From contig JAVCCE010000052.1 in the NCBI GenBank assembly GCA_030765645.1, positions 13,662 to 77,661 of the forward strand: a stretch of 64,000 nt of DNA. The letters are read 5' to 3'. Made by a program: the position numbers and the translations under genes. The notes below the pieces were generated by a model. The model searched no databases. It was not told the origin of the DNA and was given only the letters and a program-made list of their open reading frames with translations. Position 1 is the first letter of the stretch. Every line of letters begins with the position of its first letter. This document shows, piece after piece, positions 42,087 through 59,956 of this stretch. Source of the DNA: Candidatus Hinthialibacter antarcticus. GTDB taxonomy: Bacteria; Hinthialibacterota; Hinthialibacteria; Hinthialibacterales; Hinthialibacteraceae.

Positions 42087-42325
42087 GGGTGGGCGAGACT
42101 CCCGCCAAGCCAAATAAAGTAGGGTGGTTCTTAACCCACCAAAAAAAATTAAAGCAGGGTAGGGTGGGCTCGCGAAGCAGCCCACCGGATGAAACCGCCC
42201 CTCACCCCAACCCCTGCCTGCGGCAGGCAGGCTCTCCCATAGGGAGAGGGAGCAGATTGTGGTTTAGCCGTAGGGTGGGTTCTTAATCCACCAAAGAAAA
42301 TGTAGGGGCGCAGCGCGTTGCGCCC
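42087..42325. repeat. Mixed REP cluster
   Basis: GGAG-like REP 42087-42111. GTAG REPs at 42119-42140, 42159-42186, 42270-42292 and 42302-42325. CCCTCACCCC..GGGAGAGGG repeat 42198-42250 containing a 19-bp palindrome. Confidence 0.85.
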
Positions 42326-42364
42326 GCAATTAAAGAATGATTCGCAACAAGAAGGAGTCGGCAA

Positions 42365-43159
42365 TTGGACAAATGTTTTGAAGGCGAATGGGCTTTAATT
42401 CTCGGGTCATCCAGCGGCATGGGGTTGGCGTCCGCCAAAGCCCTGGCGTCTCATGGAATGAACATACTCGGCGTTCACTTCGACCGTCGTTCTGCAATGA
42501 AAAAAATCGAAGAAGAAATTGCCTGGATGAAAGACCAGGGCGTTGAGGTGGAGTTTTTCAACCAAAACGCCGCCGACGAAGAAAAACGCCGCGCCACTGT
42601 TGATGCGATCAAAGAACGCACCGGCGGCAAACGGTTGCGTACGCTATTACATAGCCTCGCGTTTGGAACCCTCAAGCGATTTATCAACGAGAGCGAAGAC
42701 GGCGAGTTGACCCAAAAACAAATGGAGATGACCCTCGACGTGATGGCCAATAGCCTGGTCTATTGGGTGCAAGACCTGCGCCGCGCCGGGCTGATCGCCT
42801 CCGGCTCGCGTATCTTTGGCCTGACCAGCGCGGGCAGCCACACCGCATGGCCCAACTATGGCGCCGTATCCGCCGCCAAGGCCGCGCTCGAGTCGCACAT
42901 TCGTCAGATCACTTTCGAAGGCGCCAAAGACGGCGTCAGCGCCAACGCCATCCAGGCGGGCGTCGTGGTGACCCCCGCGTTAGAAAAAATCCCCGGGCAT
43001 GAGAAACTGATTTCTGAGGCCTTGGCGCGTAACCCATCAGGCCGCATGACCACAGTAGAAGACGTGTCGAAAGTGGTGTGCCTGCTGTCGCGTCCTGAAG
43101 CGGATTGGATTCGCGGCAGCGTGGTCTTCTGCGACGGCGGCGAAGACATCGTCGGCTAG
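42365..43159 (+). CDS. SDR-family enoyl-ACP reductase (FabL/FabI-like)
   Basis: LILGSSSGMG, Y-x6-K (YGAVSAAK), DGG near the C-terminus. TTG start with AAGGAG RBS. Confidence 0.82.
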   Translation: MDKCFEGEWALILGSSSGMGLASAKALASHGMNILGVHFDRRSAMKKIEEEIAWMKDQGVEVEFFNQNAADEEKRRATVDAIKERTGGKRLRTLLHSLAFGTLKRFINESEDGELTQKQMEMTLDVMANSLVYWVQDLRRAGLIASGSRIFGLTSAGSHTAWPNYGAVSAAKAALESHIRQITFEGAKDGVSANAIQAGVVVTPALEKIPGHEKLISEALARNPSGRMTTVEDVSKVVCLLSRPEADWIRGSVVFCDGGEDIVG

Positions 43160-43179
43160 GGCGCCGCAGGCGCCTTTTT
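43160..43179 (+). terminator. Intrinsic terminator
   Basis: GGCGCC-GCA-GGCGCC-TTTTT. Confidence 0.55.
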
Positions 43180-43299
43180 GTTTGAACTTATTGAAGTATT
43201 AGAAGCACAACCGTTACCTGTCTCTATCGCTGAGCCGTTCCGGCGCGCTGACACTCTGCTTGTCAGTATGACCGGGCTGCCTCGCCATCTTATAGCCGG

Positions 43300-43371
43300 G
43301 TAGGGTGGGCTCGCGAAACAGCCCACCAGAAAAAACTGAAGCAAGCAGAGTTGTACCCATCCCACATGCAG
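43300..43371 (+). repeat. GTAG REP followed by the 3' part of the 80-bp hairpin
   Basis: GTAGGGTGGGCTCGCGAAACAGCCCACC, then ACTGAAGCAAGCAGAGTTGTACCCATCCCACATGCAG. Confidence 0.8.
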
Positions 43372-43517
43372 ATTTATGAAAAAGTATCCAATTAACCAAA
43401 GAACCCAAATGAATGTAATAACGCCCGTCAGGAATCCCTCTTCATCTTGAGCCGGAGCGAATTTTTCGTTCTAATGTACGAGTTACCTCAGCCGAGTGAA
43501 TTCAAAGGAGATTGTCC

Positions 43518-46373
43518 ATGAGTGCATTTTGGGGACGTGTGCAGACCGCACCGTTTTTATTGGTATTATTCGCTGTTTTATTTACCGCTTCAGCGTTTGC
43601 CGACATCCCGAGGCCCGAACATCCGCGCCCCGACCATTGGCGCGACCAGTGGGTCAACCTGAACGGGCAATGGAACTTCAAGTTCGACCCGGATAATACA
43701 GGCGTCGAAGACGAATGGTTTAAAGCCGACTATAACGACTGGCCGAAAAAGAAAATCACTGTACCTTTCCCCTGGGAAAGCCGCCTGTCGGGCATTGAAC
43801 AACCCGATTACAAGGGCGTCGCCTGGTATCAGCGCACCATTGAACGCCCCGCTGGCTGGGAAGGCAAAAATATCCTGCTCAATTTCAGCGCGGTTGACTG
43901 GTCGTTTGACGTGTGGCTTAACGGCAAGAAGATCGAACCCGAAAAGGGCGGCATGTCTGACTACCCGCCGCATGGCTATGTACCCGTGGTCTTCAACATC
44001 ACCGATGCGCTGCAAGACGGCGTCAACGTGTTGAGCGTACGGGTCGAAGACAACACCACGCCCACCCAACCCGTCGGCAAACAGGTCAACTGGTACACCC
44101 GCACCAGCGGCATCTGGCAGACGGTCTACATGGAAGCCACCCAAAAAAACGGCCTCAAATACATCGCGCCGTTTCCAACCATCGACGGCAATGTCGAGTT
44201 CCGCGTGGTCGCGTTTCAACCGTCCGACAACCTCAGCGTACGCATCTTACCTGACATGCCCTATGACGCATCCGGCCCGTCCAAGACCGTCCCGGCGAAA
44301 CTCGAGCAAACCGTCGAAACTAAAAGCGACCACATCAAAGTCAAATTCAAACTCGACGACGTCGAACTCTGGTCGCCCGATTCGCCCACGCTCTACTTCG
44401 TTGAAGTGCAACTATTAGACGACGGCGAAGTGGTCGACACGGTACATACCTATTTCGGTTTTCGTGAAATCACGCGTAAGCAGAATGGCGACAATCCATA
44501 CGAAACCATTCATCTCAACGGCAAGCCGTTTTACATTCTTAGCGCACTCAATCAGGCGTTTCATCCCGAGGGAATCTACACCTATCCCAGCGATCAGTTG
44601 ATTCGCCAGGACGTGGAAGACGCGCTCGAATTTGGTTTCAACAACCTGCGCCTGCACATTAAAGTCGATGAGCCGCGCTTTTATTATTGGTGCGACCGCC
44701 TGGGGATGACCCTAATGTATGACTTCCCCTGCCCGTGGCAGTTTGACGCCGACATGCGCGACAATTTCAAGAAGGTGTTCTTCGAAGCGCTGCTGCGCGA
44801 CTTCAACCACCCGTCGATCATCACCTGGGTCATCTTTAATGAAACCTGGGGCATCCCCGGCGTGAAAGACAACCCTGAAGTGCAAGACTACGTCAAAGAA
44901 ATGGTGGGACTCACCAAGCAGATCGACCCCACCCGGCTGGTCGAAGACAACTCGCCCTGCAATTACGACCACGTTGTCACTGATGTGAATTCGTGGCACC
45001 TCTATATCAATGAACATGACCACGCCCGGCGGCATATTCAAGAAGTGGTCGATAAGACCTTTCCCGGCTCACAATTCAATTTCGTCAAAGGCTACAAACA
45101 GGAAAACCAGCCGTTGATTAACAGCGAATACGGTGGCATCAGCGCCGACATGGGCGACCGCGATGTTTCGTGGTGCTTCCATTTTCTCACGCAGGAACTG
45201 CGCCGCCACGACAAGATCGGCGGGTACGTCTATACCGAGTTGCAAGACATCGAGTGGGAACATAACGGCTTTATGAACTACGACCGCAGCCGCAAAATTT
45301 TCGGCTATGAAGAATACGTCCCCACGCCGGACGATCATCCGCCCTTCACCTACCGCGATCTCAATAATCAGAATTTTCTGGTATTGGACGCGATGAATAA
45401 TGAACGCGCGACGCCGTTTGAAACCAAACATATCAAGACGGCGTTGAGCCTGTATTGCGGGCATGATGGCGGCAAGTTCCCCTTGCGTTGGCGCGTGTGG
45501 AAGCAGACGCGCCTCGACCTCGGCTGGCAGTCTGACCAAGCGGGGAGCGGTTGGGTCAACGCCAAAGCCTATGGCATGGCGGATGGCGACGACGTGACTT
45601 TTGTCCCTGAGCCGGACGCGCTCTATTGCGTCTACGCCTGGGTGGAAGACGGTGACGGCGAATTGATCGCGCGTAATTTCTGGACAATCAATACGCTCAG
45701 CGGCGATTATTCGGGCGAAGAACGCCACGTTCAGATGATGGCGGGCGGCGACCGTAAGTATATCGAAGCGCCGGAATGGTATGTCCGCTGGAACCCGACC
45801 GACTATACGGAAGCGACAGGCGAGATTGAGCAGATTCCCAAAGAGAACCGCGACTCGGTTTCGGTCCCCGGCAAGGCGCAACTGACCTATCAAGTGTCGC
45901 TGCCCAGCGGCGTCGATCTCAGCAAAGTAAAGAAAGTCAAACTGCAACTCGAACTGGCGGCCTGTTCGGGCGGGATGCGCATTGACGCGCTCGAACGAGC
46001 GGGGCGTTTTGAAAAACCGGAATGGCGCGCCAACCGCAACCCGCTGCATTTCCCGCAGACTGACGTTGGCAATGAGTATCCATCGACGATTGAAGTGTTG
46101 GTCAATGGCCAGGTGGTGAAAGAGATTTGCCTGCCCAACGATCCGGCGGATTATCGCGGCGTGTTGAGCAACATCTTCGAACAGGCGCCGCCCAGCGTGT
46201 ATGGCTACTTGCAGCGCATTTACGTGCCGGTTTCAGCCGTCACCGCAGACCGCTCGAACGAAATCGTGATTCGCACCAAAGAAGGCAGCGATACCGGTGT
46301 ACGGCTCTTCGGCGCTTATAGCGGACGGCATCCTTTCCCACCCAGCATGATTTTGTATGAGTCAGGACAGTAA
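43518..46373 (+). CDS. Secreted glycoside hydrolase family 2 with an extra C-terminal domain
   Basis: PRPEHPRP, LNGQWNF, YFGFREI, RLHIK, RDFNHPSIITWVIFNE (acid/base), NSEYGG (nucleophile). Confidence 0.9.
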   Translation: MSAFWGRVQTAPFLLVLFAVLFTASAFADIPRPEHPRPDHWRDQWVNLNGQWNFKFDPDNTGVEDEWFKADYNDWPKKKITVPFPWESRLSGIEQPDYKGVAWYQRTIERPAGWEGKNILLNFSAVDWSFDVWLNGKKIEPEKGGMSDYPPHGYVPVVFNITDALQDGVNVLSVRVEDNTTPTQPVGKQVNWYTRTSGIWQTVYMEATQKNGLKYIAPFPTIDGNVEFRVVAFQPSDNLSVRILPDMPYDASGPSKTVPAKLEQTVETKSDHIKVKFKLDDVELWSPDSPTLYFVEVQLLDDGEVVDTVHTYFGFREITRKQNGDNPYETIHLNGKPFYILSALNQAFHPEGIYTYPSDQLIRQDVEDALEFGFNNLRLHIKVDEPRFYYWCDRLGMTLMYDFPCPWQFDADMRDNFKKVFFEALLRDFNHPSIITWVIFNETWGIPGVKDNPEVQDYVKEMVGLTKQIDPTRLVEDNSPCNYDHVVTDVNSWHLYINEHDHARRHIQEVVDKTFPGSQFNFVKGYKQENQPLINSEYGGISADMGDRDVSWCFHFLTQELRRHDKIGGYVYTELQDIEWEHNGFMNYDRSRKIFGYEEYVPTPDDHPPFTYRDLNNQNFLVLDAMNNERATPFETKHIKTALSLYCGHDGGKFPLRWRVWKQTRLDLGWQSDQAGSGWVNAKAYGMADGDDVTFVPEPDALYCVYAWVEDGDGELIARNFWTINTLSGDYSGEERHVQMMAGGDRKYIEAPEWYVRWNPTDYTEATGEIEQIPKENRDSVSVPGKAQLTYQVSLPSGVDLSKVKKVKLQLELAACSGGMRIDALERAGRFEKPEWRANRNPLHFPQTDVGNEYPSTIEVLVNGQVVKEICLPNDPADYRGVLSNIFEQAPPSVYGYLQRIYVPVSAVTADRSNEIVIRTKEGSDTGVRLFGAYSGRHPFPPSMILYESGQ

Positions 46374-46398
46374 TGAAGTTATAATTCCTCGAACGATT

Positions 46399-46429
46399 AA
46401 GGGCGCAACGAAAGTTGCGCCCTTTTTTT
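46399..46429 (+). terminator. Intrinsic terminator
   Basis: AAGGGCGCAAC-GAAA-GTTGCGCCCTT-TTTTT. Confidence 0.9.
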
Positions 46430-46496
46430 GTAGAATTTCAATGGTTCTTTCGCTCGCACCGAAATGAAGAGAGACCTCCCCACGCATTTTTTAATC

Positions 46497-47033
46497 TTAC
46501 CACCCTTCGCGCTCTCGCAGCGACGTGATGTGGGCGATGTGGTGTTTGCCATGCCAGGCGTAGGTACCCACCGCTTCATCTAATGAAATCGCTCGCGCTG
46601 CTTCGGGGTGAAAATATGTCATCTGAAAATGCGAATCTTCGAGAGAATGTAACAAGAGCGCCCAGCGCTCATGCAGTGCGCCGACCAGCGTCAGCGACAA
46701 TTCAACGGGCGCATGTTGCGCGTCTTCGAGCCGCGCCCAGCGGTCTTCAAAATAGGGGCGAATGCTGGGTTCATCTTCCGTCAACGCCAAGCGAAAACGA
46801 ATATAACTATTGATATGGCTGTCGGCCAGATGGTGAACCACCTGCCGCAGCGTCCAGCCGTCGGGGCGGTATTGCGTATCGAGTTGGCCTTCGTTCAATC
46901 CTTCTACCGCAGCCCGCAGTTGCGCGGGCGCAGCGGCGATTTCATTGATTAAGCGACTCCGTTCTTCTGCAGAGTACGCTTCGTCATAAGTGAATTCGCC
47001 AATAGGAAATTTCAACGCATTCAAATCAGTCAT
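46497..47033 (-). CDS. YfiT/BstA-like DinB-family thiol S-transferase
   Basis: LKFPIG, YRPDGWTLRQVVHHLADSH, YAWHGKHH. Confidence 0.88.
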   Translation of the reverse strand: MTDLNALKFPIGEFTYDEAYSAEERSRLINEIAAAPAQLRAAVEGLNEGQLDTQYRPDGWTLRQVVHHLADSHINSYIRFRLALTEDEPSIRPYFEDRWARLEDAQHAPVELSLTLVGALHERWALLLHSLEDSHFQMTYFHPEAARAISLDEAVGTYAWHGKHHIAHITSLREREGW

Positions 47034-47058
47034 GCACATTCTCCCCAAATCATCTAAA

Positions 47059-49020
47059 TCATTCCTGCAATTTTAACATAGGGAATTCCGTAATACGCAA
47101 CCGCGTGCAGCCGTATGGAATCAACTGAATATCTTCTAACGGCTCATCTGAAACAATCGGGCTTTTGGGCGTCTCGCCTGCGGAGTTCATTTCCAGTTTC
47201 CATTCGGGAACCTTACGCGCTTTGGCATGAATTACGACAGGCGGATCTCCATGAGAGAAGGGCGTATCTTGAATCGGGTTCGCATTTATCACCAAGTTCT
47301 GTTCGACGTAATCTGGATCAATATTCAGCGCATAATTCCAATCCGTGGTTGGATGTACCGCCCAATCAATCACAGGCAATTCATCGTGATGGCGCGCGAT
47401 CTCTTCAAATTTCTCGCCGATTTTAAGTGAGAACAATACAGGGCCGCGAAATACAGATAGCGCATTGTTATAGCGTTGTTCTAATCGAAGCGGCATGTTA
47501 ATTATTATTTGAACCACATCGCCGTTTTCCCATGTTTGGTTCAACGAAATCATATTGCCTTCGGTTTCACGATTGGTTAATTTTGTTTCCCCATTTTTGG
47601 TCGTGATCGTCATTTCGGTTGACCATGCGGGGAAACGAAACGCCAAGGGAAATTCAACCGGCTTAGGCGTTTTGATGGTGAATTTCAGGCTGCCGTCGAA
47701 CGGGTAGTTGGTCTCCTCCACAATCGTTACTTCGACGCCGTCGGCGACTTTGGCGGTGACTTTCGAGGGGCCGTAGGCAATCGCCGCCAGCCCGCCGTCT
47801 GGAGTCGCCGCCCACAGGCTCGCGACAAACTTAGGCCAGCCCTGGTGCATGTTCGCCGTACAGCATCCAAAGTGCGGTTCAAGGCCATACAGGTTCGACG
47901 TATCGCTGTTGTCAGTCCAAGTGCGCTTGGCGATGGTGCACAACACCTGGTTGGCCTGTTGGTCGTATTGGTGCGCCCAGAAGTCAGGGGTGCAAGCGCC
48001 GGGCAGTGCGTTATACGCCAGCGTTTCCAGGCGGTCGGCGAACTTCACGTCGCCAGTGATGCGCACTAGGTTTTCCAAACTGAACATCGACTCGACGATG
48101 GCGCACAGTTCGGTGCCTTGGGTAGGCGACTTGCCCGCGATGTGCTCGTCGCCGCTGAAGCGTCCGCCCGCTTGTCCGTGATATTTGTCGAGCATTTCAA
48201 GCGCGGTGGATGACGCTTGCAAGTCGCTTGGGTCGCCTGACTGCAGCCAGCGCAAAGCCGGATACTTAATCGCCATGCCGTTATTGACGACGTGGGTCTG
48301 GTGGTAATTGGCGCGGATATCGGTGGTGTATCCAAAGAACGGAAAATTCTGGTAGTGTTTGATCCAGTTGAAACTGTTGTCGTGAATCGACTGCGCTGCT
48401 GTAAGCGCGTTGGCGTCGCCGCTGCGGTTGTAATACCAATAGGCGGCGACCATATTTTCGCGGGCGCGCACGCCGCGCCATTCTTTGTCGGGCCAGTCAG
48501 GCGGCGTTGCGGCGAGATAGCGAAAGTAGTTTTTCATCAACTCGATCACGCGCTCGTCTCCGGTCGCTTCGTGATATTGCATTAATACTTTCAGCGTCAC
48601 AGCCAGCGGCCAGCGGTCGTTATTTTTTGCGGGGCCAAACCAACCGTTTTCCTGCCCACTGGCGAGGATGGGCTCGATCCAGCCTTCGACTTTTTTTATG
48701 AGGCGTTCGTCTTTGAGGATGTACGCCAGCGGGACCAATCCGTCGAGATAGTAGGGGCCGCGTTCCCAGGCGTCGCCGTCTTTGCCGCGCCAGGCCGATT
48801 CAGACACCGTCGGCCAGAACTCATCGAGATGTCCGGTGAGGCCGTTGGCGACGATGTTCAACTGGTCGCGTAGCCAGCCCTCCGGCTCGACCGCTCCGAC
48901 GGGCAGCGCGATAAACTTCGACGGCTGCAACGGCGCCCGGTTAGCGGGATAATTCGCCTGCGCGTGAGCGCAGAGTGAGCCGATCATCAGTAGCGACGAC
49001 AATACCCATTGATATTTCAT
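47059..49020 (-). CDS. Secreted GH127-like beta-L-arabinofuranosidase
   Basis: WERGPYYLDG, HVVN, GTELC, GCCTAN, EETNYPF, LIPYGCT. Confidence 0.85.
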   Translation of the reverse strand: MKYQWVLSSLLMIGSLCAHAQANYPANRAPLQPSKFIALPVGAVEPEGWLRDQLNIVANGLTGHLDEFWPTVSESAWRGKDGDAWERGPYYLDGLVPLAYILKDERLIKKVEGWIEPILASGQENGWFGPAKNNDRWPLAVTLKVLMQYHEATGDERVIELMKNYFRYLAATPPDWPDKEWRGVRARENMVAAYWYYNRSGDANALTAAQSIHDNSFNWIKHYQNFPFFGYTTDIRANYHQTHVVNNGMAIKYPALRWLQSGDPSDLQASSTALEMLDKYHGQAGGRFSGDEHIAGKSPTQGTELCAIVESMFSLENLVRITGDVKFADRLETLAYNALPGACTPDFWAHQYDQQANQVLCTIAKRTWTDNSDTSNLYGLEPHFGCCTANMHQGWPKFVASLWAATPDGGLAAIAYGPSKVTAKVADGVEVTIVEETNYPFDGSLKFTIKTPKPVEFPLAFRFPAWSTEMTITTKNGETKLTNRETEGNMISLNQTWENGDVVQIIINMPLRLEQRYNNALSVFRGPVLFSLKIGEKFEEIARHHDELPVIDWAVHPTTDWNYALNIDPDYVEQNLVINANPIQDTPFSHGDPPVVIHAKARKVPEWKLEMNSAGETPKSPIVSDEPLEDIQLIPYGCTRLRITEFPMLKLQE

Positions 49021-49054
49021 GATGTTCTCCCCGTTGATGTATTGTGAGTTTTTT

Positions 49055-49239
49055 GAATCTATCTTAAAACAATGATAACGAAAAGGATGTGCGAGATATC
49101 ATAATATGACAACTCATTACTGGCCTGGGTGTAACTCTGGGAGCGCCTGTGCAAAAGGGCCTGAAAGCCCGCACTGAAGCGAGCAGAGTTGTACCCAGGC
49201 CTTTTGCAGCGAACGATCAATTATTTCGAGATGGCTTCT
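49055..49239. mobile_element. MITE-B shell carrying 80-bp hairpin copy E (49122-49201)
   Basis: GAATCTATCTTAAAA..TTTCGAGATGGCTTCT ends match the 19620 element in the opposite orientation. Confidence 0.62.
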
Positions 49240-49241
49240 CG

Positions 49242-50423
49242 TTATTTGTTTTCTCCATCCATCAGCCAGGCGAGGTTGAAGCGCGCCAGGGTCAGAAAAC
49301 GATACCCCTTGTTCGTCTCATTGTCACCGCGTTCATACAAGCAATAAACGGTTTGATCCGGCCCAACGATGATATCGCTATAAGCGGCGAGCCCAGGGTC
49401 TAGTATTTTCGCAATCGGCCAAGTTTCGCCCTCATCATAACTCATTTTGATGACAAGGTTCTGTCGCGCGTTGGGTTTTTGCGCAGGCGCGTCACCGTAT
49501 TGGTTGTCAGGATTCACAAACAGAATGCGGTTTTTATCCGTCGAATAGCGCGTCAGCCCCGCCATGCAGGTCGGTTCAAACAACGCGTCGTTATAGACGG
49601 GCGTTGTCCAATTGGTTGCGCCGTCGGGGCTGATCGAAACCAGGCGGCGGCGGTTGGGTGACTCGTTGCGCATGTTGACCATCACCCGCCCGTCAGCGAG
49701 TTGAAGCGCCAGCGTTTCGCTAGGATTTTTTGCGAGGTCGCTATTGTTGACGATGATGTCGCCCGCTAGCCAGGTCGCGCCGTGGTCGTCGCTGTAGATG
49801 GTGGTTACGCACGAGGGGCGGTGCCCATGCTCTCCTGTCGAAAGCCACACCGGAACGACCAGCCGTCCGTTCTTTAATTGAATGCCGTGGTTCGGCCCCG
49901 TCGCCAAGACATGCCAGTCGTATTCGGGGCGATAGGCGTCAAAGGTTGAGGTGATTTCAATCGGCGACGAAAAGGTCAGGCCGTCATCGTCGCTGCGCAT
50001 GTAGAAGCAGCGACCGTATTCTATACAATACAAAAAATGCACCGCGCCGCTCTGGTCGGCGATTGCGAGAGGATTGTTAATCGTCAAATTGTCTTCAATG
50101 GTCATGCCCTCTTTCGCCGCGACAGGGTTCAGCTGCGCGTCGGCGGGCGGCTCAACAATCTTCTTCATCGGCGACCATGTTATGCCGCCGTCAGTGCTGC
50201 GCCTCATCATCACGTCGATGCGTCCCCAGTCGCTGCCGGATTTCCGCGCTTCGCAATAGGCCAGCAGCGTTCCCTTGCTGGTAACGACCATTCCCGGGAT
50301 GCGAAAAATTTCGTACCCGCCCTCGCCCGCAATAAACAAGTCGCGGGAATTGAAAAATGCGTCTTGCGCAAATGATGGCAATAAACATGACAATACGAAG
50401 ACACTTAAAATCAAAATCCTCAT
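49242..50423 (-). CDS. Sialidase (GH33)
   Basis: FRIP motif and five Asp-boxes (STDGGITW, SDDDGLTF, SDDHGATW, SPDGATNW, SYDEGETW). Confidence 0.9.
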   Translation of the reverse strand: MRILILSVFVLSCLLPSFAQDAFFNSRDLFIAGEGGYEIFRIPGMVVTSKGTLLAYCEARKSGSDWGRIDVMMRRSTDGGITWSPMKKIVEPPADAQLNPVAAKEGMTIEDNLTINNPLAIADQSGAVHFLYCIEYGRCFYMRSDDDGLTFSSPIEITSTFDAYRPEYDWHVLATGPNHGIQLKNGRLVVPVWLSTGEHGHRPSCVTTIYSDDHGATWLAGDIIVNNSDLAKNPSETLALQLADGRVMVNMRNESPNRRRLVSISPDGATNWTTPVYNDALFEPTCMAGLTRYSTDKNRILFVNPDNQYGDAPAQKPNARQNLVIKMSYDEGETWPIAKILDPGLAAYSDIIVGPDQTVYCLYERGDNETNKGYRFLTLARFNLAWLMDGENK

Positions 50424-50438
50424 CGAATTCTCCAATTC

Positions 50439-51573: not shown

Positions 51574-52524
51574 ATGAAGCAAACTCACGATAAATTGAAT
51601 CGGCGTACTATGTTGATGACGAGCGCGGCGGCAATGGTCGCGACGGGCGGCGCAGCAAAGACAGCCCGGGCGCAAGGACCGCAAATCGTAACGCCGCCGA
51701 TGGAGAACCGCATACTCTTATCCTGCAAACTGGGCATGATTCCCAAAGATGCAGACGGTAAAACGCTATCTATTGCTGACCGTTTAACAATGGCGGGGGA
51801 TGCGGGATTCGACGGCGTTGATTTTGACCAGGCGGCGGAATTCACCCCGCAACAAGCGAGAGACGCAGTGCAGGAATCCGGCGTGTTTGTTCACAACGCC
51901 ATCAACCACGCGCACTGGTCGCAGCGGTTAACCAGCCCCAAAGAAGAAGAACGCAACCAGGGCCGCGCCAACATTGAGCACTGCATCCGCGTATCTCATG
52001 CGGCGGGCGGCAGCGGCGTATTGATCGTCGTGGGGCGTGGAGCAGACGGCTCCGTCGATGAAGTCGAACAACGCGCGTACGAAGAGATCAAAAAATTGCT
52101 CCCGCTGTCTGCGGCGTTGGGGCAAATGATTCTTGTTGAAAATGTTTGGAACCAGATGATGTATGAGCATGACGCGCCCGCCGATCAAGGCGCTGAGCGC
52201 TTCATTGATTTCATCGACCGTTTCAAAAGCCCCTGGGTCGGCATGTACTACGATATAGGCAACCACTGGAAATACGGACAGCCTGGCGAGTGGGTGCGCG
52301 CTTTCGGCCACCGCTGCGTCAAATTGGATATTAAAGGGTTCAGCCGGGTCAAAAACGAATTCGTCGAAATTACCAGCCCTGACGACGATGTGCCGTGGGA
52401 CCAAGTCCGCATAGCGCTTGATGATATTGGATTCACCGGGTGGGCGACCGCTGAAGTTGGCGGCGGCGGTTTAGAAAGACTAACGACTGTCCGCAAGCAA
52501 ATGCAAACCGCGTTGGGCCTATAG
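51574..52524 (+). CDS. Tat-exported sugar phosphate isomerase/epimerase (xylose-isomerase-like TIM barrel)
   Basis: GGAGG RBS, NRRT Tat-like signal, VENVWN, YYDIGN, DIK, TAEV. Confidence 0.85.
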   Translation: MKQTHDKLNRRTMLMTSAAAMVATGGAAKTARAQGPQIVTPPMENRILLSCKLGMIPKDADGKTLSIADRLTMAGDAGFDGVDFDQAAEFTPQQARDAVQESGVFVHNAINHAHWSQRLTSPKEEERNQGRANIEHCIRVSHAAGGSGVLIVVGRGADGSVDEVEQRAYEEIKKLLPLSAALGQMILVENVWNQMMYEHDAPADQGAERFIDFIDRFKSPWVGMYYDIGNHWKYGQPGEWVRAFGHRCVKLDIKGFSRVKNEFVEITSPDDDVPWDQVRIALDDIGFTGWATAEVGGGGLERLTTVRKQMQTALGL

Positions 52525-52637
52525 CGATTCGATTCAGAGAGGCGGCTCAGGTCGCCTCTCTTGTTTTATCTTACAAATACGGCCTTCCCGCCATGACGCC
52601 AGAAGGGCGCGGGAACGTCTCTGTGATAATGTACAAA

Positions 52638-52673
52638 GCATGAAAGAGCGTACTCAAACACGCTCTTTCATGC
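52638..52673. terminator. Perfect 14-bp hairpin between convergent genes
   Basis: GCATGAAAGAGCGT-ACTCAAAC-ACGCTCTTTCATGC. Confidence 0.45.
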
Positions 52674-52684
52674 ATACTTATTTG

Positions 52685-52900
52685 AGGTTCATCCGGTAAG
52701 TGAGTACCTACATTGATGGATGGCCATAATATTTATTCAGAAACAGGCTCCGGCATTTCACAAATTGAAAAACCAAATATAGGCATGGGTGCGACTCTGG
52801 GAGCGCCTGTGCATAAGGGCCTGAAAGCCCGCACTGAAGCGAGCAGAGTTGTACCCATGCCGCATGCGATGAAATCTCAATCCAATTTATGGAAGAACCT
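52685..52900. mobile_element. MITE-A (216 bp) carrying 80-bp hairpin copy B (52782-52861)
   Basis: Left AGGTTCATCCGGTA, right ATGGAAGAACCT. Arms align with 57665-57929. Confidence 0.72.
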
Positions 52901-52942
52901 ATTTTTAATAATCCTTTCATTCAATCACCGACGCCCTTCGTT

Positions 52943-52976
52943 AAAAAAAATCCCCGCTGGCCGAAGCAAGCGGGGA
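52943..52976 (-). terminator. Intrinsic terminator after acnA
   Basis: A8-TCCCCGCT..AGCGGGGA. Confidence 0.75.
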
Positions 52977-53004
52977 CCTGTTGATTCATGCAGATCGCGT
53001 TGCC

Positions 53005-55674
53005 CTACGACGCCAGGTTGCGTAAGACATAGTGCAAGATGCCGCTGTTTTGGTAATAGACAATCTCGTCGAGCGTGTCGATGCGGCAAAGCAATTTGAC
53101 TTCTTCTTTGGAACCGTCTGCGCGGGTAATCGTGCAGGCGATGTCCATGCGCGGTTTAAGGCCGCTGGCGATTCCCGCGATGTCGAAGGTTTCGCTGCCG
53201 TCGAGTTTGAGCGTATTGCGGTCTTGTCCGTCTTTGAATTGCAGCGGCATGACGCCCATCCCGATCAGGTTGGAACGGTGGATGCGCTCGAAACTCTCGG
53301 CGATGACGGCGCGGACGCCCAACAACCGCGTACCCTTCGCCGCCCAGTCGCGCGACGATCCCGTGCCGTATTCTTTGCCCGCCACGACGACTAGCGGCGT
53401 GTCGGTTTCCATATATTTCATAGCGGCGTCGTAGATGCTCATCTCTTCGCCGCCGGGGATGTACTTGGTGTAGCCGCCCGCGACTTCCACCATTTCGTTG
53501 CGCAAACGGATGTTGGCGAATGTGCCGCGCATCATCACTTCATGGTTGCCTCGGCGCGAGCCGTACGAGTTAAATTCCGCCGGAGTGATATTACGCTCCT
53601 GCAAGTACGCGCCCGTCGGGCCGTCGGTTTTGATCGCGCCTGCTGGCGAGATGTGGTCCGTCGTGACGCTGTCAGCCAATAGCGCCAACACGCGCGCGCC
53701 CTGGATATCGGTAACCGCTTCCGGTGTCTTGGGCATATTAACAAAGTAAGGCGGCAGTTTGACGTAGGTGCTGTCGGCTTGCCATTCGTAGGTTTGTCCG
53801 CCCGAGACTTCGATATTTTGCCAGGCTTCATCACCTTCAAATATCGCGCCGTATTGCGTAGCGAACTGCTCCTTCTTAACCGACTTCAATACCGTTTCCT
53901 GAATTTCTTTGGTCGTTGGCCAGATGTCTTTGAGATAGACCGGCTGTCCGTCGGCGCCTTCGCCCAATGGTTCCGTGGTGAGATTCACGCGCATCGAACC
54001 CGCCAGCGCATACGCCACCACCAACGGCGGCGAAGCGAGGTAATTGGCTTTGGTATGTGGATTAACGCGGCCTTCAAAATTGCGGTTGCCGGAGAGCACC
54101 GCCGCGACGGTGAGGTCGCCGTCAACGATGGCCTTTGCAATCGGTTCTGGCAGCGGGCCGGAGTTGCCGATACACGTGGTGCAGCCATAGCCGACCAGGT
54201 TAAAGCCCATCGAGTCGAGGTCGTCTTGCAGGCCGGATTCATTCAAATAATCAGTAACAACTTTGGAACCCGGCGCCAGCGAGGTCTTGACCCAGGGCTT
54301 TACCTTGAGGCCCTTCTGCGCCGCGTTGCGCGCCACCAAGCCCGCCGCGATCATAACGGACGGGTTGGAGGTGTTGGTGCAGCTGGTGATCGCGGCGATA
54401 ACAACATCGCCGTCGGTGAGTTTATAGTCAGACGCTTCAACCGCGACGCTCTTCGGCGCGGCAGGGTCTCCGCCGAAGCCTTTCAACGCTTCGTTATAAT
54501 TGGCGTCGGCGTCGGAGAGATACACTTTGTCTTGCGGACGCTTGGGGCCTGCCATCGAAGGTTTCACTTCGCCCATGTCGAGTTCGAGCGTGTCTGTGAA
54601 TTCCGGCTCGTTGTTTGAGTCGCGCCACATGCCCTGCGCCTTGGCGTAGGCTTCGACAAGCGCAATGCGCTCCGGGTCGCGACTGGTGAGTTCGAGATAG
54701 GTAATCGTTTCTTTATCAATTGGGAAGAAGCCGCAAGTCGCGCCGTATTCCGGTGACATGTTGGCGAGGGTGGCGCGGTCAGCCAGCGGTAGGTTATCAA
54801 GACCGGGGCCGAAGTATTCGACAAACTTGCCGACAACGCCCTTCGCCCGCAGCATCTGGGTGACGGTCAAGACGAGGTCTGTTGCGGTGGCGCCCTCGGG
54901 CATGGTTCCCTTCAGGCGGAAGCCAACCACTTCAGGGATCAACATCGAAACCGGCTGGCCTAACATCGCGGCTTCGGCTTCGATGCCGCCTACGCCCCAA
55001 CCAAGAACTGCGAGGCCGTTAATCATGGTGGTGTGGCTGTCGGTTCCAACCAACGTGTCAGGATAAGCGATTGGGTTGCCGTCGGTATCCGCCGTCCAAA
55101 CTACCTGCGCCAGGTTTTCTAAATTGACCTGGTGGCAGATGCCCGCGCCGGGCGGCACCACGCGAAAATTATTAAACGCAGTTTGTCCCCAACGTAGGAA
55201 CTCATAACGCTCAATGTTACGTTTGTATTCCATCTCGACGTTATGTTGAAACGCGCCTGCCGTGGCGAACTGGTCAACCATAACCGAGTGGTCAATGACC
55301 AAATCAACCGGCGTGAGCGGATTGATCTTTTGTGGATCGCCGCCGAGGTCTTTCATGGCGTCGCGCATGGCGGCGAGGTCAACCACGGCGGGAACGCCGG
55401 TGAAGTCCTGCATCAAAACGCGCGCAGGGCGATAGGCGATTTCGTGCGATGATTTTTTTTCTTTCAACCAATCGGCGACGGCCTGGGCGTCAGCGGCGGT
55501 GACGGTGCGGTCGTCTTCAAAGCGCAGCATGTTTTCCAGCAAGACCTTGAGCGTATACGGCAGGCGCGAAATATCGCCAAGTCCGTTCTGGCTCGCGGCG
55601 GGCAGGCTGAAATAATCGTACGATGTTCCGTTTACATCCAGCGTCTTTTTACATTTGAAATGGTCGAGACTCAT
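53005..55674 (-). CDS. acnA: Aconitate hydratase A
   Basis: [38 protein letters not shown]. Confidence 0.98.
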
Positions 55675-55854
55675 TATCAATCTCACTTTGTGATTAGATT
55701 TATCGGACAAGTATTATAGTCGAACCATAGTCTGCTCCGTAGCGGGAGGAAAAATGGCAAGCGAGAACAAACGCTTTGAATCCATCGACTGCTAGAAGCG
55801 GCTTTTTTGCGGGCCTAGTCTTTAGCATCTGGAGAAATTCATTTACAGTTTGTC

Positions 55855-56048
55855 TAGAAGCCATCTCATAAAACAGGATTTCAGCAGATCGTAAATTGAC
55901 AAACCAAATCCGGCATGGGTGCAACTCTGGGAGCGCCTGTGCAACAGGGCCTGAAAGCCCGTACTGAAGCGAGCAGAACCGTACCCATGCCGCCCGCACC
56001 GAAATCTCAATTCAATTTATAATAAAGCACCCCGTTTTCGGAAGAACC
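55855..56048. mobile_element. Chimeric element: MITE-B left end, 80-bp hairpin copy C (55912-55991) and MITE-A right end
   Basis: TAGAAGCCATCTCATAAAA at 55855. CGGAAGAACC at 56039-56048. Confidence 0.62.
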
Positions 56049-56222
56049 AGAATACACCCAATACTGAACTATTTTGGAGCCGCGTCGGCTGGCGTTGTTT
56101 TTCGCTGCGCTTACCCGCCTCAAGGCTTTTCATCTTTGAGAATAACAATTTTCAGAGTGAACATTTTAAGTTAAACTGTATTTTGGCGGGTGCAAACTTG
56201 AATCACGCCTTGGAGCAAAACA

Positions 56223-56513
56223 ATGGGCATTGACGAAATCATTGGCGACAAACGCGATGAGATATTAAAGATTGCGGAAAAGCACGGCGCGTTAAACGTA
56301 CGCGTCTTCGGCTCGGTCGCGCGCGGCGAAGCCACCGAAGACAGCGATATTGACTTTTTGGTGGACCTTGAGAAAGATCGAAACCTACTCGACCTCGGCG
56401 GCTTATTGATGGACTTGCGAGATTTGATGCCGATGAGCGTTGATGTGTTTACTCCGAACTCACTCAAAGCCTATATTCGAGAAGAAGCGCTGCGAGACGC
56501 GAAACCATTATGA
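56223..56513 (+). CDS. mntA: MNT (minimal nucleotidyltransferase) antitoxin
   Basis: VFGSVARGE..DSDIDFLV. Confidence 0.9.
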   Translation: MGIDEIIGDKRDEILKIAEKHGALNVRVFGSVARGEATEDSDIDFLVDLEKDRNLLDLGGLLMDLRDLMPMSVDVFTPNSLKAYIREEALRDAKPL

Positions 56514-56839
56514 GAAGACCCAAACAACGGCTTCAAGATATTCTTGATGCGATTGAAAAAATAGAACGCTATGTGCTACAAGGAAAAGAACGCTTTGTTG
56601 AAGATGAACTCGTGCAGAATTGGTTCGTCACTCAAATCTTAATCATAGGCGAAGCGGCAAAACACTTGCCTGAAAGCGTTTATCACGAAAATCCTGATGT
56701 TGAGTGGAATAAAATCATTGGCATGAGAAACATTCTTGTGCATGGATATTTCACCATTGACTTGGATACTGTCTGGGGAGTCGTCACGGATTACATGCCT
56801 GAATTGAAAAAGAATATACTGAGGATTTTGGATGAGTAG
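56510..56839 (+). CDS. hepT: HEPN (DUF86) RNase toxin
   Basis: IIGEA, RNILVH (R-x4-H), ATGA overlap with the MNT gene. Confidence 0.9.
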   Translation: MRRPKQRLQDILDAIEKIERYVLQGKERFVEDELVQNWFVTQILIIGEAAKHLPESVYHENPDVEWNKIIGMRNILVHGYFTIDLDTVWGVVTDYMPELKKNILRILDE

Positions 56840-56921
56840 AATAAGCAGTTATGAGCGAATCAAGTTTAATTAGCGACGCCTTGTGAGGATTATAAAATTC
56901 TTTCAGGAGGGATATTAAATT

Positions 56922-57683
56922 ATGAATACCTATATCGCTTTTTATAACACTGAAAAAGAGCGCGAAAATTTTAACGCCAACCCATTCAATGAAGTGGAAA
57001 TATATGTGAAAAATGCGGAAATAAAACAAGGTGATTTAGTTTATTTGTATTTATACGGCAAGTTAAAGGATGGCATTGTAGCAAAAGGAATCGCATTGAC
57101 GGATTCATGTGGAGAAACAAATAAAAAATATATACCTTTTAGAATAGAACAATCCATTGATGAAAAAAGTGCTTTAAGGTGTAGTCAGTTACCAATTGAT
57201 CGAACCAAATTATATATAAAACGAAAAGAAGGAGAACGAAAAAAAGACTCTGCATTCAATATTAATAATGTGGCAGAGGAATTGAATCAAATTTGGGGGA
57301 ATTGGCTTGACGGTTTGGATGTTAAATCGCCTGAAGAAATAAGCAATAGACAAAATGTATATGAAGGCGCAAAGAAGAAAGTCTATGTCAATGCTTATGA
57401 AAGAAATAAAAAAGCGAGAGAAATGTGCCTTGCACACCATGGATGTAAATGCTCGGTTTGTGACATCTTATTAGAAGATAAATATGGTGAAATAGCAAAG
57501 GATTTCATTCATGTTCATCACCTTGTTCCTCTATCAAGCGTCAACGAAACTTACAAAGTAGATCCTATCAAAGATTTAATACCAGTTTGCCCCAATTGCC
57601 ATTCAATATTACATAAACGTGATAGGCCATATTCAGTAGATGAATTGAAAGAAATATTAAATTTTGGTTCATCCGGTAAGTGA
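56922..57683 (+). CDS. HNH endonuclease (McrA-like C-terminus, possible PUA/EVE-like N-terminus)
   Basis: VNAYERN..R..C..HHG..CSVC, VHHLVP, VCPNCHSILH. Strongly AT-rich. Confidence 0.85.
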   Translation: MNTYIAFYNTEKERENFNANPFNEVEIYVKNAEIKQGDLVYLYLYGKLKDGIVAKGIALTDSCGETNKKYIPFRIEQSIDEKSALRCSQLPIDRTKLYIKRKEGERKKDSAFNINNVAEELNQIWGNWLDGLDVKSPEEISNRQNVYEGAKKKVYVNAYERNKKAREMCLAHHGCKCSVCDILLEDKYGEIAKDFIHVHHLVPLSSVNETYKVDPIKDLIPVCPNCHSILHKRDRPYSVDELKEILNFGSSGK

Positions 57684-57929
57684 GTACCTACATTGATGGA
57701 TGGACATGATTTTGGTTATGAAAACCTATTCCGGCATTTCACAAATTGACAAACCAATCAGGTATGGGTGGAACTCTGGGAGCGCCTGTGCATAAGGGCT
57801 TGAAAGCCCGCACTGAAGCAAGCAGAGTTGTACCCATGCCTGATACAGCAAAAGATCAAGAATTCACGAAAAAGCGTCAAAAAACGCAATTCAATTTGTG
57901 ATAAAGTACCCAAATACCGGAAGAACCTA
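57665..57929. mobile_element. MITE-A (265 bp) carrying 80-bp hairpin copy D (57761-57840)
   Basis: GGTTCATCCGGTA..TACCGGAAGAACC (12/13 inverted match). Confidence 0.75.
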
Positions 57930-57992
57930 AATTTTGAATGCAATTGCAAAAAGTAGCGTAGGTTAGGTACTCAATCTACTCTGCGGTTTTCC

Positions 57993-59093
57993 TCACACGC
58001 TAAAGCGGAACAGTACCACGTCGGCGTCTTGCATGACGTATTCTTTGCCTTCGAGGCGCATCTTGCCCGCCGCCTTGGCGCCCGGCTCGCCGTTGCAGGT
58101 GAGATAATCTTCATACGAAATAATTTCGGCGCGAATAAAGCCGCGCTCAAAATCATTATGGATCACGCCCGCCGCCTTGGGCGCCGTCCAGCCGCGTTTG
58201 ATGGTCCAGGCGCGCGCTTCCTTGGGCCCGGCGGTGAAGTAACTCATCAGCCCCAAGCCGTGATACCCCTTGTGGATCACCTGATGCAGACCGTCTTCAG
58301 TGACGTTCATTGATTCGAGAAACTCGGCGCGTTCTTCGTCGCTCAGCCCCGCCATTTCTTCTTCAAACTTGGCGCACAACTTCACAAACTCGGCGTCTTC
58401 TTTTTCGGCGATCGCTTTCACTGCTTTGACGTAATCGCTGTCGCTTTCAAGGCCGTCTTCATCGACATTGCCTACATAAATTACCTTCTTGCCGGAGAGA
58501 AAACGCAACTCACGGTCGAGTTCGACAAAAGCGTCGCTCTCTTTTTTCGCGAACGACGACGCGGGGTCGCCCGCTTCAAGATGGGCGAGAAGTTCCTTGC
58601 CCAATTCAAACGCAGCGGCGAGAGATTTGTCGCCTTTCGACTGGCGTTCGAGGCGTTGCAGTTTTTTATCGAGTTGCTGAAAATCGGCGATGATGAGTTC
58701 GGTCTGGATGACGGCGATATCGCTTTCCGGGTCGCATTTCCCGTGGACGTGCGTGATATTTTCATCGTCGAAACAGCGTACGATATGCACAATCGCTTCG
58801 GTCTCGCGGATATTGGCGAGAAACTGGTTGCCGAGGCCTTCGCCCTGGCTGGCGCCTTTGACCAGGCCCGCAATATCAACGAACTCGACCGTCGAGTAAA
58901 TCGTCTGTTTGGGATTTACGATTTCAGCGAGTTTATCTAAACGGTCGTCCGGTACCGCAACGATGGCTTTGTTGGGTTCGATGGTACAGAACGGATAGTT
59001 CGCCGCCTCGGCGTTTTGCGCCTTGGTCAGTGCGTTAAAGGTTGTGCTTTTGCCCACGTTGGGCAGGCCGACGATACCGACTCGAAGCGCCAT
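57993..59093 (-). CDS. ychF: Ribosome-binding ATPase YchF
   Basis: [47 protein letters not shown]. Confidence 0.98.
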
Positions 59094-59201
59094 GTTCTTC
59101 TCCTGGATACTATTTCGATTAAGCCACTGAGTAGTGTATCTTCGTATGCGTAGGATTCACGGGGCGCGAACAAAATCAGACCAGAACCGGTCATTGCGTA
59201 A

Positions 59202-59281
59202 GGCTTGAGTACAACTCTCTTCGCTTCAGCGTGGGCTTTCAGACTCTAAAACACAGGCGCTCACAGAGTTACACCCAAGCC
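59202..59281 (-). repeat. 80-bp hairpin copy F
   Basis: Reverse complement GGCTTGGGTGTAACTCTG..GAGAGTTGTACTCAAGCC. Confidence 0.85.
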
Positions 59282-59361
59282 TTTTGTCATCAATATTTCA
59301 GAATGTATGTTTAAATTGGCTTGATCCCGATATAATGTTGGCAGCGATAGGAGATAAATAT

Positions 59362-59538
59362 ATGTCAAGCGCAAAAACGGAAGTCGAGTTACTTTTGCAG
59401 AAATTGCCGGATGACTGCACAATTGAAGACATCCAGTATCACCTCTATGTGGTCGATAAAATTAACCGGGGGGTAGAACGGGCCTCTCTAGAGGGGACTT
59501 TCACGCAAGATGAGGTTGAAATACGGCTTAAACAATGA
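59362..59538 (+). CDS. Small antitoxin of a ParE/RelE TA pair
   Basis: AGGAG RBS and 58 aa 'LPDDCTIEDIQYHLYV..INRG'. The stop overlaps the toxin ATG. Confidence 0.72.
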   Translation: MSSAKTEVELLLQKLPDDCTIEDIQYHLYVVDKINRGVERASLEGTFTQDEVEIRLKQ

Positions 59539-59816
59539 AACGAAAAATCGTTTGGTCTCCAGAAGCTGTTGATGACGTTGAGTCAATTTATAACTTTATC
59601 GCCCGTGATTCCAATGCGTATGCAAAATCTGTAGTCGACAAGATCATTCAAACAGTAAAATTTATCCCCGACCACCCTTATGCTGGACGCATTGTTCCAG
59701 AAATCAACCAAGAAACCGTTCGAGAAAAATTAGTATTCAGTTACCGTTTAATCTACAAAATTTCTGAAACTGAAATTTTGATTGTCACGGTTCTGCACGA
59801 TAAGCGTCTATTATAG
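59535..59816 (+). CDS. RelE/ParE-family toxin
   Basis: IVWSPEAVDDVESIYNFIA..GRIVPE..YRLIY..TVLH. Confidence 0.88.
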   Translation: MKRKIVWSPEAVDDVESIYNFIARDSNAYAKSVVDKIIQTVKFIPDHPYAGRIVPEINQETVREKLVFSYRLIYKISETEILIVTVLHDKRLL

Positions 59817-59859
59817 TGGTTGCCAGAATACTGTGCGGATTGAGTTTCAACTGTATCTA

Positions 59860-59892
59860 TTGCTGCGCCCCTGCCTGCGGCAGGCAGGCTAC
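59860..59892 (-). repeat. GTAG REP remnant interrupted by the 19-bp palindrome CCTGCCTGCGGCAGGCAGG
   Basis: GCTGCGCC + CCTGCCTGCGGCAGGCAGG + CTAC. Removing the insert gives GCTGCGCCCTAC, the reverse complement of a GTAGGGCGCAGC REP. Confidence 0.7.
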
Positions 59893-59956
59893 AGGTGCGC
59901 TTTACGCACATATTTTTGACAGATGTTCTAGCGCTTGAAAGCTGATCTCGAACCAT

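Follow-up and report, generated by a model that had tools for sequence, protein, structure and literature searches.

A 19-nucleotide palindrome as a probable mobile DNA element in Candidatus Hinthialibacter antarcticus and other bacteria

Results

The stretch analyzed here, called the window in the following, comprises 64,000 nucleotides of Candidatus Hinthialibacter antarcticus (contig JAVCCE010000052.1; C44:13662-77661 of a draft genome of 5.15 Mb with 51% G+C) and carries two identical, exactly matching copies of a short palindrome, T1 (CCTGCCTGCGGCAGGCAGG), on the plus strand at positions 42213-42231 and 59870-59888. An initial sequence-only reading of the window had pointed to an identical 23-nucleotide pair at 42211-42233 and 59868-59890, and the pair was verified with the exact 19-nucleotide core inside each member; the two further nucleotides on each side are identical because CC^CT is, by coincidence, the target in both cases (the caret marks the point of insertion). 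By chance 0.02 matches to T1 are expected in the window, and the observed number was reached in 0 of 100 shuffles. That reading had to rely on only two copies, which no longer holds, as enumeration throughout the genome gives 23 exact copies and about 70 loci with up to three mismatches (71 loci were tabulated for their flanks). T1 is intergenic in this genome and 0 of the approximately 70 loci lies within a real coding frame.

As DNA, T1 is predicted to form a hairpin with an 8-bp stem and a 3-nucleotide loop (-8 kcal/mol, z = -3.1). It can also be laid out as CCTGCC-TGC-GGCAGG-CAGG with a 6-bp stem, a 3-nucleotide loop and a 4-nucleotide CAGG tail, and on the opposite strand a CCTG tag is followed by the hairpin, which is the layout of tagged repetitive extragenic palindromes (REPs). 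The CAGG tag is able to pair with the other end of T1. The element is not followed by a T-run, a scan of the window against Rfam gave no match and the reversed word, used as a control, had 0 matches in all genomes. A full-text literature search for the 19-mer and its 17-nucleotide core found no paper.

Both copies in the window interrupt other repeats. At the first site the left half of a repeat termed family F (CCCCTCACCCCAACC, 42198-42212) is separated from the right half (CTCTCCCATAGGGAGAGGG, 42232-42250), and the two halves are contiguous in uninterrupted copies, for example at C32:94154 and C32:94400. After rejoining of the two left-hand C's the right half forms a hairpin with a 9-bp stem, and the fold predicted for the empty repeat is CCCTCTCCC-ATA-GGGAGAGGG with -10 kcal/mol. 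The joined flanks CCCTCACCCCAACC and CTCTCCCATAGGGAGA (CCCTCACCCCAACC^CTCTCCCATAGGGAGAGGG) are present without interruption at at least 22 places of the genome, two of which agree within one mismatch over 32 nucleotides. At the second site T1 lies in a repeat of about 120 nucleotides, family A, whose left part (CTGTGCGGATTGAGTTT...CTATTGCTGCGCC, 59831-59869) aligns with many other family-A copies and whose right part (59889-59931) starts with CTAC, the reverse of the GTAG tag, followed by GGTGCGCTTTACGCAC. Here T1 occupies GAGCC^CTACGGG, the usual insertion site of family A. It directly precedes CTAC and lies one base ahead of the TAC loop in the consensus hairpin GCCC-TAC-GGGC.

For families A to D both flanks were anchored and the intervening sequence was listed for each copy. 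Family A (ATCGCTGAGCC^CTACGGGCGCGC) has 66 copies, 41 of them empty, 13 with 19 nucleotides and one with a 38-nucleotide composite of T1 and a nested relative, T2. Among the 79 copies of family B (GGAGGGCGAAC^CTCCTGGTGAGCC) 67 are empty, eight contain 19 nucleotides (four in each orientation), two contain 38 nucleotides and one a 20-nucleotide variant. Family C (GCGAAGCGA^TCTCGC) is empty in 19 of 26 copies and holds T1 in 4-5, and family D (GGGCTGCCGTCG^CTTCGCGACGCC) is empty in 30 of 33 copies with T1 in the other three. Together with site 1 these counts bear out the earlier claim that removal of the palindrome restores the host repeats and show that these repeats do not always contain it; exact removal of 19 nucleotides recreates uninterrupted copies in at least six unrelated host families.

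The length of the unit was controlled at 59 loci with the requirement that the exact 9+9 k-mer of the joined flanks exists elsewhere in the genome. A deletion of 19 nucleotides gives such a k-mer at shift 0 for 18 of the 59 loci, and deletions of 17, 18, 20 or 21 nucleotides give essentially no match; shifts by one position in either direction also match, which reflects register ambiguity, and a shift of +3 matches at four loci. As only the 19-nucleotide deletion recreates existing junctions, the unit of T1 is exactly 19 nucleotides. A target duplication was found at none of the sites with an empty counterpart, neither in this genome nor in the T1-rich chromosome described below, in agreement with the original observation that the junctions need no duplication. 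When the repeats of the genome were screened generically for palindromic inserts of 15-45 nucleotides with precise borders, essentially only T1 emerged.

Some inserts of 20 nucleotides (CCGYGCCTGCGGCAGGCAGG or ACTCGCCTGCGGCAGGCAGG) were seen at C38:9541, C38:9732, C50:31562 and C59:16394 in a family-B-like repeat (GGCTCGYCGGGAG^ACTCGCCCTCCCC). One of them has ACTCGC on both sides and could be either a diverged T1 or the product of another mode of insertion.

The flanks of T1 are far from random. At least one flank is shared with another T1 locus in 62 of the 71 loci, and therefore T1 loci sit within other repeat families; furthermore, a pyrimidine follows the insert at nearly all loci. The junctions in this genome include GCC^CTAC, AAC^CTCC, TCG^CTTC, ACC^CTCT, GAA^CTCG, GTC^TTCT, GGC^TTCG, CGA^TCTC and, for the insertion of T2 into T1, TGC^CTGC, so that position -1 is C or a purine and the remaining preceding bases vary. 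The CC^CT rule proposed from the two window sites describes both of them correctly but is one case among several, as AAC^CTCC, TCG^CTTC, GCGA^TCTC and GTC^TTCT demonstrate. The proposal that T1 targets hairpins had a similar fate. In families A, B and D, the small REP-type hosts, T1 does lie one base before the loop of the host hairpin, and folding predicts that the host stem is kept with T1 stacked on top in filled A and D, whereas the minimum-energy structure of filled B is rearranged. As a mechanism the targeting of hairpins is no more than possible, and the inserts of the T1-rich chromosome fall in transposase frames, mostly without a hairpin evident by eye. The location in repeats may in part reflect survivorship and hitch-hiking on the host repeats.

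About 10 of the 71 loci are chimeric repeats that are joined exactly at T1. Examples combine the left part of A with the right part of C (C14:54535), the left part of a repeat resembling a miniature inverted-repeat transposable element (MITE) with the right part of A (C40:50845) and the left part of B with an inverted C (C63:5017).

The most abundant repeat of the genome (about 200 copies according to 14-mer counts, core GGGTACAACTCTGCTCGCTTCAGTGCGGGCTTTCAGGCCCTTATGCACAGGCGCTCCCAGAGTTGCACCC) has one member, at C40:50845, that continues through T1 into the right half of family A. A diverged copy of this repeat lies in the window at about 59215-59300, just upstream of two small open reading frames of 84 and 93 amino acids near the second T1 site (59284-59816), which overlap by four nucleotides and have the look of a toxin-antitoxin pair. 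At the syntenic place the sole congener (G001) and the nearest other genus (G013) have neither this pair nor the family-A repeat, and their spacer measures only about 160 nucleotides.

T2 (CTAGCCTACGGCTAGCAGG) is a 19-mer as well, occurs in six copies and has the layout CTAGCC-TAC-GGCTAG-CAGG. It is always found inside T1, at CCTGC^CTGCC, and in hosts of both family A and family B, each time within the T1 subvariant of that family. Relative to T1 there are two compensatory pair changes in the stem (C-G to T-A and T-A to A-T), and the 6-bp stem, the length of the 3-nucleotide loop and the CAGG tail are kept; the alignment of both elements therefore reveals a conserved design, stem(6)-loop(3)-stem(6)-CAGG. 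In other phyla T1 is nested in T1 at CCTGCCTAC^CGCAGGCAGG.

The presence of T1 with up to one mismatch was surveyed in 60 other genomes, namely 34 relatives from the same family, order or class and 26 unrelated genomes. Among the relatives only the congener has T1 (seven loci) and the other 33 of 34 lack it, and among the unrelated genomes it is present in 2-3 of 26. In addition, the exact word was searched in a collection with one genome per species, in which at least 120 stretches matched in comparison with about four matches expected by chance from an arithmetic estimate with uniform composition. Among the matches listed, exact T1 occurs in metagenome-assembled genomes (MAGs) and isolates of more than 10 phyla, with Acidobacteriota, Bacteroidota, Patescibacteria, Ignavibacteriota, Planctomycetota, Omnitrophota, Elusimicrobiota, Nitrospirae, delta-proteobacteria, Verrucomicrobia and others represented, and no T1 was noticed in cyanobacteria among these matches. 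The Bacteroidota isolates belong to Algoriphagus, Winogradskyella, Cognataquiflexum and Cyclobacterium. Copy numbers are as low as 1-3, and an Acidiferrales genome has about 110 and a gammaproteobacterium about 540; in other phyla T1 again lies within repeats. Contamination of genome bins is unlikely to explain the copies in different phyla because T1 is found in isolates and in megabase contigs. Phages are not an obvious vehicle, as a scan of viral contigs gave only six matches.

Two further observations concern the context of T1 in other bacteria. In Flavobacteriaceae MAGs (L063, L077, L085, L098, L102, L139) T1 lies in the conserved context AACAAATTTTGATACACA..GAATGATTAAT.GCGAA, T1, C.GCA.CTGTTACCGCTAAAAAATAAAA, which may be an orthologous non-coding locus or small RNA gene with a long-standing insert. 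Host family C (GTCATYGCGAGCGNAGCGAAGCRATCTCG..., with the inverted partner ...CTCGCAATGAC) and look-alikes (..CTCGGAATGAC) occur in Acidobacteriota, Patescibacteria and others (L033, L043, L058, L083, L090, L091, L096, L100), often with T1 nearby at a similar place. From this similarity, several small repeat families of the Hinthialibacter genome seem to belong to a pool that crosses phyla.

The richest genome is the finished gammaproteobacterial chromosome OZ251218.1 (G066, 3.66 Mb) with about 540 copies, whose common variants have A or T as the centre base. Here T1 also enters coding frames: one integrase-type frame of 344 amino acids contains seven inserts and four other frames contain 2-3 each, and deletion of 19 nucleotides per insert gives intact frames in five transposase families (two rve-type, DDE_Tnp_1, DDE_3 and IS1595). 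The borders of T1 in these insertion sequences (IS) are identical to those in the Hinthialibacter genome, and the target can be written as R^Y with a purine at -1 in 26 of 30 and a pyrimidine at +1 in 28 of 30 sites; most of the sites have no evident hairpin when judged by eye. Two IS copies with 99% identity differ by the exact presence or absence of the 19 nucleotides at two sites, CTCTGA^TTGA and GCA^CRTAG, and have the other five inserts in common. This polymorphism is direct evidence for recent gain or loss of T1. At loci L155, L156, L160-L162 and L163-L182 the IS copies already carry the five shared frameshifting inserts, and as a disabled IS is present at several loci it was mobilized in trans after disabling or copied in another way. 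Many T1 copies of this chromosome occur in pairs 55-110 nucleotides apart, similar to the REP doublets known as REPINs.

In a 400-kb sample of this chromosome the density of T1 is about one per kb where the DNA is non-coding and 0.12 per kb where it is nominally coding, and identified transposase frames reach 5-7 T1 per kb. Most of the coding matches of the sample lie in transposase frames, and the identified ones in the middle of a frame are all transposases; a few frames outside of IS have T1 near the end or in a truncated gene. No housekeeping gene is interrupted in mid-frame in the 400-kb sample, and removal or bypass of T1 at the RNA level is thus unsupported. It is also not needed to explain how T1 is tolerated, as the coding inserts are found mostly in transposase frames and spare housekeeping genes in mid-frame. 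In a Cyclobacterium isolate T1 breaks the frame of a reverse transcriptase (RVT_1), which is restored by deletion of the element; judged from its YADD motif the gene is probably of the group II intron type.

The Hinthialibacter genome encodes three Y1 proteins that resemble REP-associated tyrosine transposases (RAYTs). The gene at C29:9182-9553 is flanked by GTAG REPs (GTAGGGTGGGTTCTTAACCCACC), the one at C46:60111-60416 by family-D-like repeats (GGTGGCAAGGGCAAGAACGAGCAGAGCGAGTTCAGCCCTTGAGG) and the one at C66:146816-147043 by family-B repeats (GGGGAGGGCGAACCTCCTGGTGAGCC). There are thus three parallel REP-RAYT systems in one genome, and the REPs of two of them host T1. The only T1 near a Y1 gene is embedded in the family-B copy beside the C66 gene.

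Discussion

Taken together, T1 is probably a non-autonomous mobile DNA element of exactly 19 nucleotides. The suggestion of an extremely small mobile palindrome made in the sequence-only reading is supported by the fixed unit, the occurrence in two orientations, the nested T2 and the polymorphism between IS copies. T1 enters, and may also leave, a single phosphodiester in one piece without gain or loss of target nucleotides, and it seems to rank among the smallest known mobile DNA elements. Several insertions can be told apart in the Hinthialibacter genome. In family B both orientations are present at one phosphodiester (GAAC^CTCC) and carry separate variants, CCTGCCTGCGGCAGGCAGG versus CCTGCCTGCCGCAGGCTGG, which requires at least two events at one site. 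The identical exact 19-mer occurs in at least eight different contexts, and family-D copies that are 97-98% identical over 175-188 nucleotides differ by the insert.

A number of observations weigh against this interpretation, and some of them concern the amount of inheritance. The variants of T1 partly follow the host family, with a CCAG variant in B and C, and composites of B with T1 and of C with the CCAG variant are also present in the congener. Host-linked variants and shared composites indicate that many copies were inherited or multiplied with their carriers, and independent insertions in this genome may number perhaps only 10-20, followed by hitch-hiking. Furthermore, a comparison of filled with empty copies reads the same for insertion and for precise excision, and an orthologous empty site was not found in the congener or the nearest other genus, where a site-by-site comparison is prevented because in both the host repeats are entirely missing from the syntenic places. 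Other points on the same side concern the enzyme. Solo T1 copies flank none of the three RAYT-like genes; of the 61 sampled genomes, 48 contain Y1_Tnp (PF01797) irrespective of T1, with no match in the congener (seven T1 copies) or in OZ251218.1 (about 540); and no enzyme that moves T1 was identified in this analysis. A model with cleavage at C^T on both ends predicts an insert of 18 and not 19 nucleotides. A strand bias is not apparent either, with 37 copies with an A centre facing 35 with a T centre in 400 kb of OZ251218.1, a sample whose skew does not clearly delineate a replichore and in which polarity may not be reflected by the centre base.

The first set of points can be read as a relic: T1 would have entered each host family once, long ago, and then have been carried along without being mobile any more in this genome. 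This is in line with the host-linked variants, with the composites in the sister species, with the single orientation of all 13 family-A inserts and with strongly supported family-A branches that are compatible with a single origin. We nevertheless consider it unlikely. The 23 copies are letter-perfect in their different contexts while the carriers differ by 10-20%, and the two orientations at one bond of family B and T2 within T1 in two host families, each with its own T1 subvariant, also speak against a relic. In a weakly resolved tree built from the flanks, the copies of family A that hold T1 do not cluster (11 changes versus 11.9 in shuffles). Even so, the relic would still need at least 10 true insertions, which alters the timing and not the nature of the element.

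As to how a mobile T1 would move, the missing duplication, the design of tag and hairpin, the insertion at loop tips and the chimeras at the borders argue for strand transfer on folded single strands. T1 may move as a folded single strand with the help of a trans-acting strand-transferase, either an HUH/Y1 enzyme or one with a comparable function, whose gene lies elsewhere or which the host provides. We propose this route tentatively, in the awareness that it could easily turn out to be wrong. Located inside the REPs of two RAYT systems, MITE-like families and IS, T1 would in addition be multiplied passively as the carrier spreads. This passive multiplication is in part documented by the present data, and riding in carriers would account for the identical 19 bases in many phyla.

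A more specific alternative regards T1 as a substrate of the RAYTs of the genome, in that the enzymes of the B and D REPs cut near the loop and join T1 there. The three Y1 genes with their flanking REPs agree with this view, as does the position one base before the loop in B, D and A alike, and many junctions lie at CT. The TnpA-REP protein of Escherichia coli needs a 5' GTAG, requires CT, which it cuts as C^T, and performs strand transfer without duplication (PMC3479197). Set against this, T1 contains no GTAG, the family-C site (GCGA^TCTC) and most sites of the T1-rich chromosome offer no CT, and the missing solo flanks, the two T1-bearing genomes without a PF01797 match and the length of 19 nucleotides also speak against these enzymes. 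Many of the sampled genomes free of T1 do carry PF01797 genes. Y1 or RAYT genes as a simple correlate of T1 were rejected, since their presence is independent of T1, and the co-occurring nuclease or HUH gene that the sequence-only reading suggested looking for did not turn up, as no HUH gene tracks T1 in the 61 genomes. We therefore regard the involvement of these RAYTs as doubtful, slightly more so than the relic; the enzyme of a mobile T1 may belong to another family or be a general host function.

T1 could also be a recombination or mosaic joint that shuffles repeat modules in the manner of bacterial interspersed mosaic elements (BIMEs) and spreads by gene conversion, which would explain the chimeras with T1 exactly at the joint. 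Conversion needs flanking homology, however, and T1 lies base-exact in unrelated sequence including unique codons of transposase genes. Lengths of 19 nucleotides are at or below those usual for homologous exchange, the chimeras are a minority, and strand transfer at the borders predicts them equally. This explanation is very improbable.

Hardly any credit can be given to a motif selected convergently as terminator stem, protein-binding site or RNA hairpin or to an assembly artefact, for which the strong hairpin, the intergenic location in this genome and the frequent position near contig ends would speak, as it is contradicted by insertion polymorphisms with T1 present or absent in otherwise identical repeats, by frameshifting inserts in transposase genes, by the occurrence in finished isolate genomes and megabase contigs, and by the missing T-run, Rfam match in the window and reversed word.

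By reasoning only, three further candidates were discarded: resolution of an extruded cruciform in the manner of a Holliday junction gives hairpin-capped breaks and not excision, the excision footprint of a larger transposon does not agree with the missing duplication and the missing parent element, and a coincidence with type IIS or type III restriction sites was also rejected.

Tagged REPs are the obvious systems for comparison. Their super-families have 20-40 bp, a stem of 6-9 bp and an unpaired GTAG or CGTC motif at one end, and the CGTC-tagged REPs have no known dedicated transposase (PMC3733652). Like T1 they are short, extragenic, high-copy palindromes with an unpaired 4-nucleotide tag at one end, and T1 with about 70 loci and -8 kcal/mol is indeed a high-copy, extragenic and hairpin-forming repeat. 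The subfamilies with compensatory stem changes and the location of some REPs inside other palindromes or genes (PMC3733652) resemble T1 and T2, and the CGTC REPs share with T1 that they are not known to have a dedicated transposase. The stem of 6-8 bp and the tag at one end fit, whereas 19 nucleotides are below the range of tagged REPs and the tag of T1 and T2 is CCTG (CAGG on the other strand) instead of GTAG or CGTC. Unlike the REPs of a REPtron, T1 flanks no RAYT gene and its presence is not tied to one. REP families are usually lineage-specific, in contrast to the exact word of T1 in more than 10 phyla among the matches listed. Base-exact empty and filled alleles, which are abundant for T1, are to our knowledge rarely documented for single REPs. 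Based on the different tag, the length of 19 nucleotides and the missing REPtron, T1 appears to lie outside of the GTAG and CGTC super-families.

The behavior of T1 also resembles that of the small dispersed repeats (SDRs) of cyanobacteria, which Elhai in 2008 reportedly described as hairpin repeats of 21-27 nucleotides that are nested in each other and in MITEs and that are said to have been judged mobile from presence and absence. We know of no enzyme for SDRs. Nesting and presence/absence match T1 at the level of behavior. T1 differs in its length of 19 versus 21-27 nucleotides and in its occurrence in many phyla, as SDR-like repeats have been reported only in Nostocaceae (PMC5861425). IS200/IS605 elements and the derived palindrome-associated transposable elements (PATEs) also insert without target duplication at a defined bond and have a hairpin with a 4-nucleotide guide or tag beside the stem, but IS200/IS605 elements possess two different hairpin ends, a fixed tetra- or pentanucleotide 5' of the insert and a strong strand bias. 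T1 has a single hairpin, a loose target, no co-occurrence with Y1 and nearly equal counts of both centre bases. The combination of missing duplication and hairpin plus tag still parallels the ends of IS200/IS605 and the REP substrates of RAYTs (PMC3479197, PMC3733652).

MITEs share with T1 that they are non-autonomous and mobilized in trans, frequently nest and multiply in intergenic DNA. They are, however, 4-15 times longer (70-300 bp), carry terminal inverted repeats and generate a target-site duplication through DDE transposases; T1 leaves no such duplication and is therefore not a MITE. We are not aware of terminal repeats of IS that match the halves of T1. The GC clusters of yeast mitochondria and the related 'byp' elements are short, GC-rich palindromic mobile inserts that can enter coding genes; they are organellar, have 27-55 nucleotides and are tolerated through translational bypassing. 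The coding inserts of T1 are different, as they are located in transposase and reverse-transcriptase genes with nothing suggesting bypassing.

New in the present analysis are the exact word common to different phyla, polymorphisms with base-exact borders, a nested relative with a covarying stem, the insertion into the REPs of two RAYT systems and the burst that disrupts five IS families. It is tempting to go further and to assume that T1 is the smallest self-propagating DNA parasite yet seen, which would do without a transposase encoded by the element or specific to a lineage, would be cut and joined by a widely conserved host activity on folded single strands and would cross phyla in IS, group II introns and REP or MITE carriers; we offer this as speculation that is improbable in its full extent. 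Furthermore, bursts of T1 may preferentially shred transposase genes and so hold other mobile elements in check, whether accidentally or as a domesticated function, an idea based on the 5-7 inserts per kb in the five IS families of OZ251218.1 versus about one per kb in its other non-coding DNA.

For decades it has been an open question by which route REP-like and other tiny repeats are mobilized, and T1 provides a clean handle with its fixed 19-nucleotide word, base-exact borders and abundant empty and filled alleles, while T2 shows which features of T1 are conserved. As the copy number ranges from 0 in the sister genera to about 540 in a finished chromosome, a comparison of gene content could name the enzyme, and cultured carriers of T1 exist in Algoriphagus, Cyclobacterium and Winogradskyella. 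One short hairpin can rewire other repeats such as REPs and MITE-like families and knock out transposases, and T1 therefore bears on genome stability and on the reading of repeat mosaics in MAGs.

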